Shown here in pieces: positions 1 to 5,912 of a stretch of DNA of 5,912 nucleotides. Location of the stretch: the IMG/VR virus record IMGVR_UViG_2698536443_000004. One strand, given 5' to 3'. The stretch comes from a virus. Lineage: Duplodnaviria; Heunggongvirae; Uroviricota; Caudoviricetes. Numbering within the stretch: the stretch's first letter is position 1; the number at the start of each line of letters is the position of its first letter. The position numbers were made by a program.

Positions 1-3000
1 GTTCATGGCTGAACTCCTGAAAATGGCTGTGAAAATATCGCCCGCGAAATGCCAGGCTGATTAGGAAAACAGGAAATGGGGTTAGTGAATGCTTTTGCTT
101 GATCTCAGTTTCAGCATTAATATCCATTTTTTATAAGCGTCGACGGCTTCACGAAACATCTTTTCATCGCCAATAAAAGTGGCGATAGTGAATTTAGTCT
201 GGATAGCCATAAGTGTTTGATCCATTCTTTGGGACTCCTGGCTGATTAAGTATGTCGATAAGGCGTTTCCATCCGTCACGTAATTTACGGGTGATTCGTT
301 CAAGTAAAGATTCGGAAGGGCAGCCAGCAACAGGCCACCCTGCAATGGCATATTGCATGGTGTGCTCCTTATTTATACATAACGAAAAACGCCTCGAGTG
401 AAGCGTTATTGGTATGCGGTAAAGCCGCACTCAGGCGGCCTTGATAGTCATATCATCTGAATCAAATATTCCTGATGTATCGATATCGGTAATTCTTATT
501 CCTTCGCTACCATCCATTGAAGGCCATCCTTCCTGACCATTTCCATCATTCCAGTCGAACTCACACACAACACCATATGCATTTAAGTCGCTTGAAATTG
601 CTATAAGCAGAGCATGTTGCGCCAGCATGATTAATACAGCATTTAATACAGAGCCGTGTTTATTGAGTCGGTATTCAGAGTCTGACCAGAAATTATTAAT
701 CTGGTGAAGTTTTTCCTCTGTCATTACGTCATGGTCGATTTCAATTTCTATTGATGCTTTCCAGTCGTAATCAATGATGTATTTTTTGATGTTTGACATC
801 TGTTCATATCCTCACAGATAAAAAATCGCCCTCACATTGGAGGGCAAAGAAGATTTCCAATAATCAGAACAAGTCGGCTCCTGTTTAGTTACGAGCGACA
901 TTGCTCCGTGTATTCACTCGTTGGAATGAATACACAGTGCTTATTCGTACTAATAAAATACCCAATTTTCTGTTTCTTGGTTGTGTCCAAAGTTATATTC
1001 AATATCTGGTGTTGATGTATCAATATTCTTCATACCATCAACAAGAGTTGATACAACAGCCAAATCTTGTTTGATTCTCATTAAATGGTATTTCTTCCGG
1101 CGCAATAAACTTTCAATGGCAAGTTTCTTCGTTGGGAATGCAAAAGATCTTTCTGCATTTTTTGCTACTTTCTTAATTGCATATCTATTTCTCCTTTGTT
1201 TCCATTCCTGTAACCACTGATTTGGTGCTGGTTTAAAATTAACAATCCAATGCGCAGGAACCAACCATGCATAATGCTCTGTCTGATGAAAAGCTATATA
1301 TTGAAGTGCGAATATTTTTATCCCATCTTCTTCAACTGTCGCCTGGAATCTCCAGAAAACAGGCATTCCATCATGTTCAGTTTCTGATTCAGGAAAAGGT
1401 ACGCTCCATGATTTTGTCATATCTCACCTCAAATAAGTGGTTTGCTGCCTAATTTCATTTTCTGGCGACCAACACAAGTCACCTCGCCGTCAGTTGTTTT
1501 GATTTCCGGTAGCCTGCCGCGTAAATGGCTACGTTTGGAAGACATACACCAGTTTCTGGTTGCTTATGTCCAAACTCATTCGCGTACACAATGGCCGCTC
1601 GCTCCAGATTGCGTCTGTATTCTTTCTGTTGCCAGATCACGTCCTGTGCCATGAACTTAATTGGCTTAGCGTCTTCTATGCGCTCAGGCGTTTCGTGAGT
1701 ACCTTTAGCCTGAATCTGCGCTCTGCTTAGAGTAGGGCGGTGTAATACTTCTGAACTTATTGCTTCTTCGCGGGCCAGTACGCCGTTAGCTAATGCCTTT
1801 GCCTTTAAACGCTCACGACGACGAGAACGTGAATTGCCTTTGAACTGAGTTCTGCGTGTCATATAGACCTCCTGATGAACTTTGGTGGTGTGGTAGGTGG
1901 GAGACCCATTTCGACCTGTTTCGGCCTACTTCAATTCGGCAATAGTCCCGCAGGCCTCGCCGCTTTACGTGCGACATATTCCCGTCCATGAACCCTTCAC
2001 CACACCCCAAAGTTCACTTTGGTTATTGCGCTTTGTCAGCGCCGTAGATTCATATTCGAATCGTTGTATATTCACCGCCCTGGTGAGTAATGCGTCCTGC
2101 TGACGACGATAATAATGAACCAATAGTTCGACATTATCAAGAACTATTGGTACGAATTTTGGTGATTTATTAACTCTACGAAGTATGATTCTGATATATA
2201 AGGAAATTTATTTTTGAAAATGTGGCTGATGAAGGTTATGCGGCAGGGATCATAACTGCATGGTTTAGCGAGTTACATCAATAAATACAATTGGTTATGT
2301 TTTTTAGGTGGGCGAACGTGAGGCAAAGAAAACCCGGCGCTGAGGCCGGGCTAGATTTTAAAGTATTTATCTTTTAGAGATGTAGATGTAAAACTTTTCG
2401 CCTTTGAAAATTTTTTGTCATCAGAAGGGCTTATGAACTCATCTTTTTTGTAGGGAACCGCTAATGCTGCATCACGTCTGCGAGGCAGCTTGCTTACTTC
2501 CTCGCGCTTTTTCATGATCAGTTATCCTTTAATAACCTATACAGTTTTGTAGGGGTACATCCTGAGGATATTGTTAAGTTCGTAGCACGCCTTTTCCGCC
2601 CATCATCGTATAAACGAAAACCAGTAGTAGACGAATTTTCTGCGTCAAAAACTATAGACAGTATAGCGTCCCCAGACTTTTTTTGCCATTCGCATGTGCC
2701 GTTAGTTGGTTTCGTCATCTGTAGACGCCAGTCAAGAACGCCATCACTTATAGCTGAGAGATCGTTTAGTACATCTAGTACGGATTGATATCTTTCATTT
2801 GGATCTACATGAATGCATTTGTTCACTATTGTTATTAATTTTTTATGTATATGGGGAGGATACTCTTTTAATGGATAGCAGCCATTAATTATCGACTCTC
2901 TGAGTTGTTCAATCGTGCTAAATGCAGATCTTTCTCTTTCAAAATTATCATGTCCAACACACATTCTATATATGGTTAATCCTGCCTGATATATGTCATA

Positions 3001-5912
3001 TGTGAAATTATAATCATTTGTTGATAAAGAAAAATATTCCGGTGGCACATGAAAATGATATCCAAACTCAGGCGCAGCTCTCGATTCCTCATTGACTAAC
3101 TGAGATAATCCAAAGTCAGATAGCATGGCCTCATTTCTGTTTGATATCATAATGTTATTAGGTTTTATATCAAAATGCATAAGACCTTTTGAGTGTATAT
3201 GATAAAGTCCACTTAAAAATTGAATGGAATACCGTATTATCTCCCTGCTTGTAAGATTATTTTTTTTCATTAATTGGTTTAGCGAACCATTATGATAAAA
3301 TGGCATGGCTATATAGATATTGCTCTCACATTGAGCAGCATACTGAACTTGCACAATATTTGGATGTGCATGTTTATAGAGAAGCCTTGCTTCATTAAAG
3401 TAGTCGTCGTGGTTAGTGTTTTCTTTTTTTTCTATTTCTTTAATCACCAAGTCATGAGCTAGGTGTCTGTCATGAGCCAGATATACTTTTGAAAAACAAC
3501 CCTGTTCTTCTAGATCACTAATCCATTCGAATTCTACATCAGCTCTTTTGTATGGAGTTAGCATCCCCTTACCTCCGCAGATAGTGCAGCCAAAACAGCT
3601 TCATTTGTTTCAGTTGTAAAACCAGAATTATCGATTCCATTTATATTGCGGTGTGACTTCAATATTTCTTTATACTCGATCTCTGTTAGGTTCAATGATG
3701 ATTTCATGCCAGATTTTCTAATAGTGTAATATTTTCTTACATCACTGCTTGAAAATGCTTCTTGAATAACAGCTTCTATATAAAGGCGGTCAATGCTAAG
3801 ATTATCAGAGTTTGATTCAGTAACGCGTATGGCAGCTAATTCAACATTATATAAATTAAGAATGTCGAGGATGTTATTTCTCACATACTTTAATTTTTCT
3901 GGTGTGTCTAAGGTCGAAGGTATTTTAATAACATCAACACATTTGAGTGCAGACTCATTAGTGCAATATACAACAAAAGATGTAACTTTGGGCGCCGCTC
4001 TAACACCTAGTATTCTCATTTTTTATATCCTATTTTAGAATCAGGCCGCATCTCTGCGACCATCCATCATCCAAACGTCTCTTCACTCATCCGAAGAAGC
4101 AGCAATCCGGGTCAGCACGCACAAGCTCAAGCGCATCAGTCAGCGAAAGTTCAGTACTGTACTGATGCCATTTCATATCCTTCCGCATCCAATAGATTTT
4201 CCATCTATCCAGAGAACGTATGTACTTGATTCTTGCTGATGGCAGGATGTTTGTTTCACCTGGATTGCCCTGCCACACGGGGCGCTGTTCGCCGATATCT
4301 ATCGTTTGGTCATTGATGCTATAAACAATATCCAGTTCATTGCGGATATGTTCAGGCGGCCTTATGCTTTCAATGAATTGGTGAACTTCTTTTTTTACTG
4401 CTTGATATTCAAGGTCATTGAACGCCATCTATCCTCCTTACCCAAACGTCTCTTCAGGCCACTGGTTACCAGCTATGTGACGATGAAGTCACGAACTTTT
4501 CAGCCACTCCCTTGCCTCGATGTCATCCAGATGGCGAGATTGCTTCAGAATACCAGCTACATACTCCACCTTTGCTACTTGATGATAAGGCAACGTTATA
4601 GGCCTGTGATCCTGGTTAATGCTTGTAAATTGGTATTCTCCATCTCTGTCATAGCCAAGAACCTTAATCATGTTGTGTCCTTCAACGGTTCTGACAAACA
4701 CCTCATCACCCGGGAATACTTTGGTGTTAGGCTCAATGAGTACATATTCTCCTGATTTTATTCTGGGCCACATGCTGTCTCCTTTCACACGAAGACCAAA
4801 GGCATCTGGATCATCGCTATAAATTTTGAGCCACCCATCGCGCTCTTCGGTCATCTCGATGGCACCATCAACACCAAGAATTGCCTCACCAACCACGCGC
4901 ACTAACCCTTTTTTTAATTTGCCAACAAATGAAAGAGTATCTTCATCATTCGCTCCATTTAACGAAGTGCCGTGCTGAAGCCAAACAACATCAACGTTTA
5001 GAAATTTCGCAAGCGCATTCATTTTTTCCTGACGCGGTAAAGACTCAGCATTAAACCATTTGCTAACGCCTTTGGACGAAAGAGAAAGGGCACGGGCTAT
5101 AGCCATTCCCCTACCATGTTCATCAAGACCAGCTTCTTTACAGGCTTGCGCTAGCCGCTGGGCGAATTCTTTGCGCACTTTTTCATTCTGAACCATGAGT
5201 ACGATACTAAAGCACTTGCAAAAACTTTCAGTTCAACCATAATACGTACTGAAAGTACGAAAAAGGATATTCCTATGCAAAATCTTGATGAGCCGATTAA
5301 AGGTGTCGGCATCCCTGAAGTTGCGAAGGCTTGTGGAGTTAGCGAAAGGGCTGTCTATAAGTGGCTCAAAAACGGCTTCCTCCCTAAGACTGAGTTTTTT
5401 GGGAAAACTAAATACGCATCAAAAATCGAAGAGATTTCTGGTGGCAAATATCAAGCAAGCGAAATGCTTGAAATAAGCAAAAAGAACCTTCTGGCTGCAT
5501 AAGTAACACCGCTATTTTCACAATGGGCATTCGTCCTACGTCGCTGACAAAGCGAGTCCCAATATATCTGACCAACTAAGGCCATATGCGTTTCCACGCA
5601 TACCTTTCAACTAGCTATTCACTATTGGAAATCTTAAGAAATGGAACAAACAAGTTACAGCAAACTATCACAGCGAGAAATTGATCGCGCTGAAACTGAT
5701 TTACTCATCAACCTGTCAACGCTTACCCAGCGCGGTCTGGCAAAGATGATTGGCTGTCATGAATCGAAGATAAGCAGAACAGACTGGAGGTTTATAGCTT
5801 CGGTCTTGTGTGCTTTTGGCATGGCATCAGACTGAACCGCCCCGGGAATCCTGGAGACTAAACTTCCTGAGAAAGAGGTAAACAGGATGACTAAAAATAC
5901 TCGTTTTTCCCC

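Follow-up and report, generated by a model that had tools for sequence, protein, structure and literature searches.

The cI operon and its cargo

The DNA analyzed here (the window, 5,912 nucleotides) is the immunity region of the Shiga-toxin phage 933W. Across the 2165 nt at 2324-4488, its sequence is 100% identical to AF125520 and NC_000924 (phage 933W), and the gene order cI-L0084-L0083-stk-L0081-tM is the same in 933W and in the window. The 933W annotation of AF125520 was moved to window coordinates by subtracting 7586 from the record positions, which places the oR3-oR2-oR1 operators and the divergent promoters pRM (pM) and pR at 5189..5259; pRM presumably drives the entire leftward operon in the lysogen. 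The first operon gene, found as an ORF and annotated in 933W, encodes the 235-aa cI repressor (4489..5196, minus strand; Pfam HTH_3, 1e-5, and Peptidase_S24, 4e-16). It is followed on the same strand by the ORFs L0084 (4087..4428, a 113-aa DUF3024 protein), L0083 (3558..4019, 153 aa), stk (2518..3564, a 348-aa Hanks-type protein kinase) and L0081 (2351..2515, 54 aa), the last three of which are treated below as components A, K and S of a trio. The intrinsic terminator of the operon, tM (2329..2352, minus strand), was recovered by a terminator scan and is labeled 'putative terminator for pM transcript' in the 933W record; its terminator-like hairpin (2352-2331, 8-bp stem with 6 GC pairs, T-rich tail) starts directly at the L0081 stop codon.

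An earlier, sequence-only reading had described four co-oriented ORFs between the cI stop and the terminator, lacking an internal promoter and occupying the slot that holds rexAB in lambda, and each of these points is borne out: all four ORFs lie on the minus strand (113, 153, 348 and 54 aa), promoter-like sites are absent from both intergenic gaps in our promoter scan, and the cassette fills the rexAB-equivalent position downstream of cI. Neither a terminator nor a promoter-like site was found between the four ORFs in the scan of the window, which as a whole holds 12 promoter-like matches versus 15.5 in shuffled sequence. The description of the cassette as AT-rich applies to L0083 (34.8% GC), stk (35.4%) and L0081 (37.6%) but not to L0084 (44.7%), which resembles cI (45.2%), so that the L0084/L0083 boundary is marked by a drop in GC (45% to 35%). 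By all comparative evidence the four ORFs are genuine genes and not chance ORFs, because each matches a PHROG family, homologues form clusters (dozens for L0083 and L0084, hundreds for the kinase) and the position of the 54-aa ORF is conserved far above chance.

The expectation that the cassette is expressed together with cI in the lysogen also holds. Secondary sources describe stk as controlled by pRM and co-transcribed with cI (PMC3564112; PMC3430580), and data on Phi24B, whose cassette is identical to that of the window, fit this picture. Two protein spots found only in Phi24B lysogens have masses of 17,096 and 13,472 Da (PMC3342100), matching the 17,096 Da calculated for L0083 and the 13,473 Da calculated for L0084, and the transcript profiles of these two genes in Phi24B lysogens resemble that of cI (PMC3342100).

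L0084 differs from the rest of the cassette in more than base composition. The protein matches Pfam DUF3024 (PF11225; 2e-31; 108.9 bits, cut-off 24.9) and the PADLOC model PDC-S43 (PDLC05018, 5e-42) over its full length (residues 1-113). A 15-nt direct repeat, TGAAGAGACGTTTGG, read in the stretch that separates cI from L0084 (4442..4456, minus strand), recurs in a repeat search right after the L0084 stop codon (4071..4085, minus strand); the two exact copies in the window compare with 0.02 expected by chance. The same motif also follows DUF3024 in another locus (L004) and lies, with one mismatch, upstream of the L0083 homologue in a further one (L121). DUF3024 without the kinase is present in more than 100 phages. 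The gene distribution thus marks L0084 as a stand-alone, single-gene passenger found alongside cI-type repressors, outside the kinase module.

The Stk kinase and its two partner genes

The statement, in the earlier reading, that the 933W kinase Stk excludes phage HK97 proved correct, the window being 933W itself (100% identity). In the sources cited, this exclusion is an abortive infection (PMC3681748; PMC3564112; PMC6356687), and Stk shows little if any activity when cells are uninfected and becomes active on HK97 infection (PMC3681748). The idea of a lysogen-expressed anti-phage kinase therefore stands, in that Stk is reported in these sources to abort HK97, but it is not an undescribed one: the central idea is already known because the kinase is the published Stk (2004 and 2011), to which the stk gene of the window is 100% identical. 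Its protein matches Pfam Pkinase (E = 2e-46) and contains both of the kinase motifs quoted from the sequence, LVIKEI and HFDIKPNN, in a kinase domain spanning approximately residues 20-270 that is followed by a variable C-terminal region of ~80 aa. Across a 70-member family, the Hanks motifs K42, E58, H130-F-D132-I-K134-P-N-N137, D150-F-G152 and P175-E176 are kept in at least 95%, R258 is conserved as well, and the catalytic loop follows a family-wide pattern, H130-F-D132-x-K134-x-x-N137. The catalytic motifs, as judged from this alignment, are intact throughout the Stk family.

The new point concerns two overlooked genes, L0083 and L0081, which flank Stk and which genomic comparison identifies as its conserved partners. 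A full-length Stk-type kinase directly follows L0083 in 77 of 79 species genomes (77/78 when only testable cases are counted, as one of the two exceptions is a contig end), and L0083 lies directly upstream in 77 of 80 viral contigs found via the kinase (77/77 testable, the other 3 contigs being cut at the edge). In the window, the end of L0083 and the beginning of stk share 7 nt, and overlaps of 1, 4 or 8 nt are typical across the family. On the other side, a small ORF (at least 45 aa, starting -8 to +12 nt from the kinase stop) adjoins the kinase in 79 of 86 kinase lineages, where shuffles predict 6.8 and the reverse strand has 9. The pairwise identities among L0083 proteins correlate strongly with those among the kinases (r = 0.88), a value reached in 0 of 999 Mantel permutations. 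The trio occurs in Proteobacteria, Bacteroidota, Cyanobacteria, Myxococcota and Bacillus phages, SPbeta-like members of which keep it at 35% and 40% identity, and its settings are varied and mobile, including plasmids and transposon-like neighborhoods; it is often found downstream of prophage repressors, the classical superinfection-exclusion slot. Adjacency and co-variation together are evidence of co-inheritance, not of a physical complex, and by this pattern L0083 and L0081 appear to be obligate partners of the kinase.

The PADLOC search that the earlier reading had proposed for each ORF returned PD-T4-6 profiles for stk and PDC-S43 for L0084, with no model matching L0083 or L0081. Our literature search likewise found no paper describing these two or the trio, so the suggestion of a possibly undescribed module stands for L0083 and L0081 but not for the published kinase. 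L0081 itself, a 54-aa protein with a pI of 10.0 that begins 2 nt after the stk stop, matches PHROG 4063 at 2.5e-39. Its position is kept across the family while its sequence diverges fast: the small ORFs after the kinase measure 49–84 aa (median 59 aa) and have a pI above 9 in 97% of cases, and sequence homology of the small ORFs was not demonstrable family-wide (best hhalign probability, 31%).

L0083 belongs to PHROG 3875, named 'RuvC-like Holliday junction resolvase', and has the RNase H-like RuvC fold. Its Pfam RuvC (PF02075) match reaches 14.2 bits, below the gathering threshold of 22.2, and covers the N-terminal half only, and the L0083 family profile matched no RuvC among PDB sequences. 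The acidic catalytic tetrad of E. coli RuvC (D7, E66, D138 and D141) is not preserved. The position of Asp7 is Arg (R7) in 76/76 and 140/141 sequences, in a solid register in which the RuvC motif 'ILG[IV]D' becomes 'ILGVR' in L0083; Glu66 aligns with R65, which is Arg or Lys in 100%, in a low-confidence register (hhalign probability, 1.3%). The probable counterpart of D141 is the invariant E140, and that of D138 is the variable E137. Because basic residues replace the catalytic Asp7 and probably Glu66, L0083 is probably a pseudo-nuclease that serves as a sensor or regulator of the kinase, although E68, E82, E87 and E140, all acidic and invariant, could make up a different active site.

Interpretation of the operon

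Our results lead us to propose that the cI (pRM) operon carries, in its distal part, two independent cargo units, L0084 on its own and the trio L0083-stk-L0081, whose genes would have been acquired together and be translationally coupled, with the kinase not acting alone; to this explanation as a whole we assign a probability of roughly 0.7. That all four ORFs might instead form one defense system is suggested by their common orientation, the lack of an internal terminator or promoter-like site and their joint expression in the lysogen, and also by Proteus-type loci (L006, L132-135) in which DUF3024 lies upstream of the trio at 38-41% identity, which implies that the combination persisted or re-formed more than once. 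DUF3024 and the trio are nevertheless separable in both directions, and the single module of the earlier reading does not survive this. Approximately 50 Stx2a phages carry the same cI and DUF3024 with an NYN-domain gene replacing the trio, Salmonella P22-like phages have a repressor and DUF3024 followed by a ParA-like ATPase, 97%-identical trios lacking DUF3024 sit directly behind another repressor, and DUF3024 is nearby in only 1 of 79 trio genomes. With the GC step at the L0084/L0083 boundary and the exact repeat bracketing L0084 pointing the same way, a four-gene system is highly improbable. At the other extreme, Stk might be a self-sufficient, single-gene abortive-infection kinase beside unrelated neighbors or non-genes, as implied by its match to PADLOC PD-T4-6 profiles (1e-37) while L0083 and L0081 have no model, by a study of O157:H7 that names PD-T4-6 alongside PDC-S43, both as single-gene systems, and by the original PD-T4-6, which protects as one gene. 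This is hard to reconcile with a near-absolute, two-way adjacency of L0083 and kinase, their stop and start codons overlapping, in at least five phyla, with the co-variation of the two sequences, with a small ORF in 79/86 lineages where about 7 are expected, and with a lysogen protein spot that matches L0083. Moreover, the PD-T4-6 match (128 bits) is limited to residues 20-273, the kinase domain, and the original PD-T4-6, at 436 aa, was cloned with flanks too short for partner genes; we consider an isolated Stk unlikely.

Two further alternatives accept the genes and differ over what they do. RefSeq and PHROGs annotate L0083 as a RuvC-type resolvase, and an active enzyme resolving Holliday junctions in phage recombination or DNA maturation would agree with the PHROG 3875 name and with the invariance of E68, E82, E87 and E140. 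Arg at the Asp7 position in nearly every sequence, Arg or Lys at the position aligned with Glu66, the subthreshold Pfam score and the absence of a PDB RuvC from the profile matches speak against it, as do the location of the gene in the lysogenic cI operon, outside recombination and late regions, and its constant coupling to a kinase, and we regard this assignment as very unlikely. Less easily set aside, if still improbable, is a toxin-antitoxin-like module for stabilization or host physiology, in which the kinase would be the toxin, the upstream overlapping gene the antitoxin and the third gene a regulator, with exclusion as a side effect. With its gene order and overlaps of 1-8 nt the trio resembles type II or tripartite toxin-antitoxin operons, the kinase is silent in uninfected cells according to one report (PMC3681748), and the mobile settings, plasmids and transposon-like neighborhoods included, would suit such a role. 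Against it stand HK97 exclusion, published as a specific, infection-triggered phenotype, and the frequent position of the trio in the exclusion slot behind prophage repressors, although the two readings are compatible with each other.

If the trio is one unit, its action can be sketched from published observations on Stk and from the properties of its partners. Others report that Stk, nearly inactive in the uninfected lysogen, is switched on by HK97 infection and aborts it; in our reading the kinase would need its partners. L0083, having apparently lost resolvase chemistry, may act as a sensor or regulatory subunit that binds DNA, branched or arising in recombination, or else a recombination protein of the phage, or that holds the kinase inactive, and L0081 could be a third subunit acting as an inhibitor, pseudosubstrate, substrate or nucleic-acid binder. 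Infection would then release the restraint or engage the sensor, and the active kinase would phosphorylate host and/or phage proteins, so that the infected cell yields no phage. Should Stk alone, expressed from a plasmid, exclude HK97, L0083 and L0081 would be modulators and not essential parts.

More tentatively, we can speculate that the three genes constitute an undescribed immune system of three components, spread over at least five bacterial phyla and their phages, in which a dead RuvC-fold protein detects phage recombination (branched or annealed DNA or an Erf-type annealing protein) and switches on a Hanks kinase, with the small basic protein as inhibitor, pseudosubstrate or substrate. 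Friedman 2011 is said to have identified HK97 gp41 as the activator of Stk. By elimination, gene 41 in the HK97 GenBank record is the Erf homologue, and these two links give weak support to an Erf-type trigger. The trio-bearing prophages examined carry Red-type recombinases (bet/exo) in place of Erf, from which self/non-self discrimination would follow.

Relationship to known systems

PDC-S43, whose profile L0084 matches over its full length, is a computational candidate for which our literature search found no functional test, and it concerns L0084 alone, not the kinase trio. L0083 shares only 12-18% identity with RuvC and with RuvC-fold pseudo-nucleases (the TEFM C-terminal domain and Cas12k), and it differs from them in being a stand-alone protein that is always encoded beside a kinase. 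In lambda, RexA activates RexB, an ion channel. The cassette shares with RexAB its place upstream of pL, behind cI and ahead of the operon terminator, and pRM expression in the lysogen, and Stk shares with it an outcome in which infection by a heterologous phage is aborted, as one source summarizes (PMC3564112). The Pfam, NCBIfam and PADLOC matches of the four ORFs include no Rex family, and the effector is a different one, a protein kinase.

Among kinases, the closest relation is identity: the 933W Stk (Tyler & Friedman 2004; Friedman et al. 2011) is the same gene, a Hanks-type kinase in a cI operon, which the secondary sources consulted present as a kinase alone, with no mention of L0083, L0081 or the cross-phylum trio. 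Assignment to Stk1/PASTA kinases fails on the NCBIfam score (122, far below the cut-off of 450), as does assignment to MADS Mad6 (NF047741, 122 bits against a cut-off of 460), for which the PADLOC mad6 match covers the kinase domain only and no other mad genes lie in the window. PD-T4-6 (Vassallo et al. 2022) is, like Stk and like Stk2 of Staphylococcus (Depardieu et al. 2016), one of the eukaryotic-like Ser/Thr kinases that provide abortive-infection-type defense. The original PD-T4-6 is a 436-aa ORF that works without neighbors and was cloned with flanks of ~180 and 230 nt (Vassallo et al. 2022). Stk does not qualify as a full-length PD-T4-6, the best profile giving 128 bits versus 280-530 bits for the Stk family's own HMM, nor as a single-gene system, at 348 aa and with coupled genes in 77/78, 77/77 and 79/86 cases; what sets it apart from PD-T4-6 is a C-terminal region of its own and two coupled partner genes.

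Layout and expression of the cassette behind cI

Five co-oriented ORFs on the minus strand, namely, cI (4489-5196; 235 aa), the DUF3024 gene L0084 (4087-4428; 113 aa), L0083 (3558-4019; 153 aa), the kinase gene stk (2518-3564; 348 aa), and L0081 (2351-2515; 54 aa), run as far as a terminator-scan hit at 2352-2331, a GC-rich hairpin whose tail is T-rich. The sequence-only reading of four co-oriented ORFs between the cI stop and a terminator, with no convincing internal promoter, was confirmed by our ORF, terminator, and promoter scans. No promoter-like site was found by the promoter scan in either intergenic gap (60 and 67 nt), and the whole window holds fewer promoter-like matches than shuffled sequence does (12 versus 15.5). 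The end of L0083 overlaps the start of stk by 7 nt, a gap of 2 nt separates the stk stop from the start of L0081, and the Shine-Dalgarno-like sequences of stk and L0081 lie inside the respective preceding gene. The description of the cassette as AT-rich holds for L0083, stk, and L0081 (35-38% GC) but not for L0084, which at 44.7% resembles cI (45.2%).

Shiga-toxin phage 933W, like many Stx1 and Stx2 phages, matches positions 2324-4488 with 100% identity. Its record lists cI, L0084, L0083, stk, and L0081, followed by the terminator tM, with the cI promoter pRM and the operators oR1-3 upstream of cI. At least 80% of the cassette is present in 223 of 5426 complete E. coli genomes (~4%); in strain 2000-3039, an IS3-family insertion interrupts it. 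In record AP004402, annotations at window positions 3693-3773, inside the L0083 coding sequence, mark three "putative operators" and a "putative maintenance promoter for CI." We dismissed these annotations as probably spurious, since the sequences bear no resemblance to oR1-3 (5189-5259). Elsewhere in the window, L0079 (950-1420, minus strand), a 156-aa ORF of 35.7% GC between N and ssb that is similar to HK97 gp45, may be another moron of the pL operon.

The 933W kinase is a classic example of prophage-encoded abortive infection in a clinically important Shiga-toxin phage. Published studies describe it as cotranscribed with cI and as aborting HK97 superinfection (PMC3564112; PMC6356687), place stk expression under pRM control (PMC3430580), and report that HK97 infection activates Stk, which in uninfected cells shows little or no activity (PMC3681748). 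For Phi24B, two lysogen-only protein spots have been reported, of 17,096 Da and 13,472 Da, whose transcript profiles are like that of cI (PMC3342100). The Phi24B cassette is identical to that of the window, and the masses that we computed for L0083 (17,096 Da) and L0084 (13,473 Da) equal those of the two spots. The central idea of the sequence-only reading, a lysogen-expressed anti-phage locus, was therefore right, and for the kinase it had already been published, as the 933W identity and the Stk literature make clear. What our analysis adds is the recognition of L0083, Stk, and L0081 as a unit, the indication that the resolvase label of L0083 is probably wrong, and the separation of DUF3024 as an independent passenger linked to repressors, next to which it always lies.

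An exchangeable slot downstream of the repressor

The sequence-only interpretation is supported in part, but its proposal that all four ORFs form a single module did not survive comparison with other phages, as L0084 and the trio each occur without the other and a 10-point drop in GC content marks the L0084/L0083 boundary. In about 50 Stx2a phages, only the L0084 segment is shared (98% identity), after a near-identical cI, and the trio is replaced by a 285-aa NYN-domain (PIN-like nuclease) protein, as at positions 3021-3878 (minus strand) of locus L004 from Stx2a phage LC616032; this protein is a candidate for another lysogen-expressed defense cargo. Salmonella P22-like phages carry the order c2 repressor, DUF3024 gene, and ParA-like ATPase gene (357 aa; phage ST160, locus L005, 1801-2874, minus strand); behind DUF3024, the ATPase represents a third kind of alternative cargo. 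Conversely, L0083-stk-L0081 cassettes of 97% identity lie directly after a different cI-type repressor and lack DUF3024. Among phage records, DUF3024 was found in 144 versus 41 for L0083. On sequence comparison, the ORFs downstream of cI are thus two units, L0084 alone and the trio, and the slot that they occupy shows itself to be exchangeable, holding the kinase trio, the NYN-domain protein, or the ParA-like ATPase phage by phage, which makes it a place to seek further systems.

An exact 15-nt direct repeat, TGAAGAGACGTTTGG, stands on both sides of L0084 (4442-4456 and 4071-4085, minus strand), with 0.02 copies expected. It also follows DUF3024 in the Stx2a phage locus L004, and locus L121 has a one-mismatch copy upstream of L0083. 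The repeat may mark a junction at which recombination swaps cargo or, alternatively, act as an RNA-level signal. L0084 matches the profile of PDC-S43, a computational candidate in PADLOC, and a literature search on DUF3024 found nothing relevant. The DUF3024 match in Stx2 II/Sakai-type phages is split into two pieces (83% identity), suggesting a frameshifted or decayed copy.

L0083, Stk, and L0081 as a unit

A genome scan with the L0083 family alignment recovered 79 species from the Alpha-, Beta-, and Gammaproteobacteria, Bacteroidota, Cyanobacteria, and Myxococcota, and in 77 of the 79 genomes a full-length Stk-like kinase (35-61% identity) begins at most a few nucleotides away from the L0083 homologue, the two genes typically overlapping by 1, 4, or 8 nt. 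One of the two exceptions falls at a contig end, and the other genuinely lacks the kinase. This sole testable genome without a downstream kinase is a Sphingomonas MAG (locus L083, 6001-6456); no kinase remnant was found downstream of its L0083 homologue in any forward frame, and the locus could be a decayed one, or the protein could in rare cases work alone. The reverse test gave the same picture, with an L0083 homologue directly upstream in 77 of 80 viral contigs picked by their kinase and the remaining 3 cut at the contig edge. The same order is kept in Bacillus SPbeta-like phages, where the first protein has 167 aa (35% identity), the kinase 350 aa (40% identity), and the last ORF 60 aa. 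Moreover, pairwise identities of L0083 and the kinase are correlated (r = 0.88), a value that none of 999 Mantel permutations reached. No fourth conserved partner emerged when 835 flanking ORFs were clustered and the upstream neighbors were surveyed by a Pfam census; the neighbors are phage-type repressors, integrases, transposases, scattered defense domains, and housekeeping genes.

The 54-aa ORF, about which the sequence-only reading was doubtful, gains credibility from its position. Among 86 kinase lineages (clusters at 90% identity), 79 have an ORF of at least 45 aa that starts between -8 and +12 nt from the kinase stop, compared with 6.8 predicted by dinucleotide shuffles and 9 on the opposite strand. 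These small ORFs have a median length of 59 aa (interquartile range, 55-62), and 97% have a pI of >9. An iterative HMM search from L0081 did not extend beyond the enteric group, cluster-wise iteration joined some of the small-ORF groups (up to 63 loci), and profile-profile scores between groups were not significant. Family-wide homology is unprovable for a sequence that diverges this fast, and we therefore relied on position, length, and charge, with the shuffle and opposite-strand controls. The two largest groups retain a basic N terminus, a conserved Tyr, and a C-terminal aromatic motif. Judged by these comparisons of sequence and gene order, L0083-Stk-L0081 is a conserved unit. The suggestion that the module might be undescribed holds in part: its kinase was already published, but the trio is newly recognized as a unit.

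Every Hanks catalytic residue is conserved in the Stk family, which comprises at least 538 clusters, nearly all of the best 120 being 337-353 aa long; the C-terminal ~80 residues are far more variable, apart from two conserved Trp residues. For the L0083 family, a set of 1.84 billion proteins yields 444 representative clusters, of which nearly all are stand-alone proteins of ~150-165 aa. Its Pfam RuvC score is below threshold, and the family profile did not match RuvC among PDB sequences. The Pfam and hhalign alignments to E. coli RuvC (sequence checked against 1hjr) nevertheless agree in register, placing R7 at the catalytic Asp7 and R65 at Glu66, though the hhalign probability is only 1.3%. 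R7 is invariant in 76 of 76 and in 140 of 141 sequences, position 65 holds Arg or Lys throughout, and E68, E82, E87, and E140 are essentially invariant too. The change of motif from "ILG[IV]D" to "ILGVR" makes the replacement of Asp7 secure; the assignment of R65 to Glu66 is less secure. We conclude that L0083 is a constrained RuvC-fold protein with a remodeled, Arg-containing site and that it is probably no canonical resolvase. Its label in RefSeq and PHROGs ("RuvC-like Holliday junction resolvase") says otherwise and is probably a misnomer for the family, which numbers more than 400 protein clusters.

Possible mechanism and known defense systems

Our results lead us to infer that the kinase would act with two obligate partners, L0083 and L0081. 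The pseudo-nuclease fold of L0083 would suit a sensor of DNA structure or protein, or a restraint on the kinase, while L0081, being small and basic with a conserved Tyr (Tyr22), might be an inhibitor, pseudosubstrate, substrate, or nucleic acid binder. The gene order, a small upstream overlapping gene, an enzyme, and a small downstream gene, is like that of toxin-antitoxin operons. If Stk is the catalytic subunit of a three-gene machine, its silence in lysogens and its switch-on by HK97 become directly testable, and bacterial immunity would gain a new sensor-effector pair, a RuvC-fold pseudo-nuclease coupled to a eukaryotic-like kinase; a literature search on a RuvC-like protein with a kinase in defense found nothing relevant.

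The HK97 activator of Stk is reportedly gp41. In the HK97 GenBank record AF069529 the gene order is 37, 38, 39 (abc2), 40, erf, 42, and 43 (kil), so that by elimination in the numbering gene 41 is the Erf-type annealing protein. The erf product (locus L166, 1676-2281) is labeled "Gp40," duplicating the adjoining gene 40, although by numbering it should be gp41, a mislabel that matters if gp41 is indeed the activator. A recombinase as the trigger would fit a RuvC-fold sensor, which we regard as a lead and not a result, and a literature search on HK97 gp41 with Stk found nothing relevant. As a further lead, the putative Erf-type trigger recalls lactococcal AbiK, for which escape mutations map to phage annealing proteins.

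Among known systems, the locus in the window is that of 933W Stk itself, and lambda RexAB occupies the same slot with the same mode of action but without homology. Stk scores far below the cutoffs for both MADS Mad6 and PASTA kinases, and CapK/CapS (2026), a DNA-damage-activated kinase, was rejected as a relative because it is an anti-sigma-type kinase of unrelated fold. We also rejected membership in PD-T4-6, a single gene of 436 aa whose clone left no room for partner genes, unlike Stk with its flanking L0083 and L0081; the PD-T4-6 profile matches Stk in the kinase domain only. PADLOC v2 has no model for L0083 or L0081. A study of O157:H7 lists both PD-T4-6 and PDC-S43 in one strain, and this pair is probably the present locus read as two single-gene systems. 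If Stk is indeed the catalytic subunit of a three-gene machine, tools that call the locus "PD-T4-6" plus "PDC-S43" merge distinct architectures and miss two genes.
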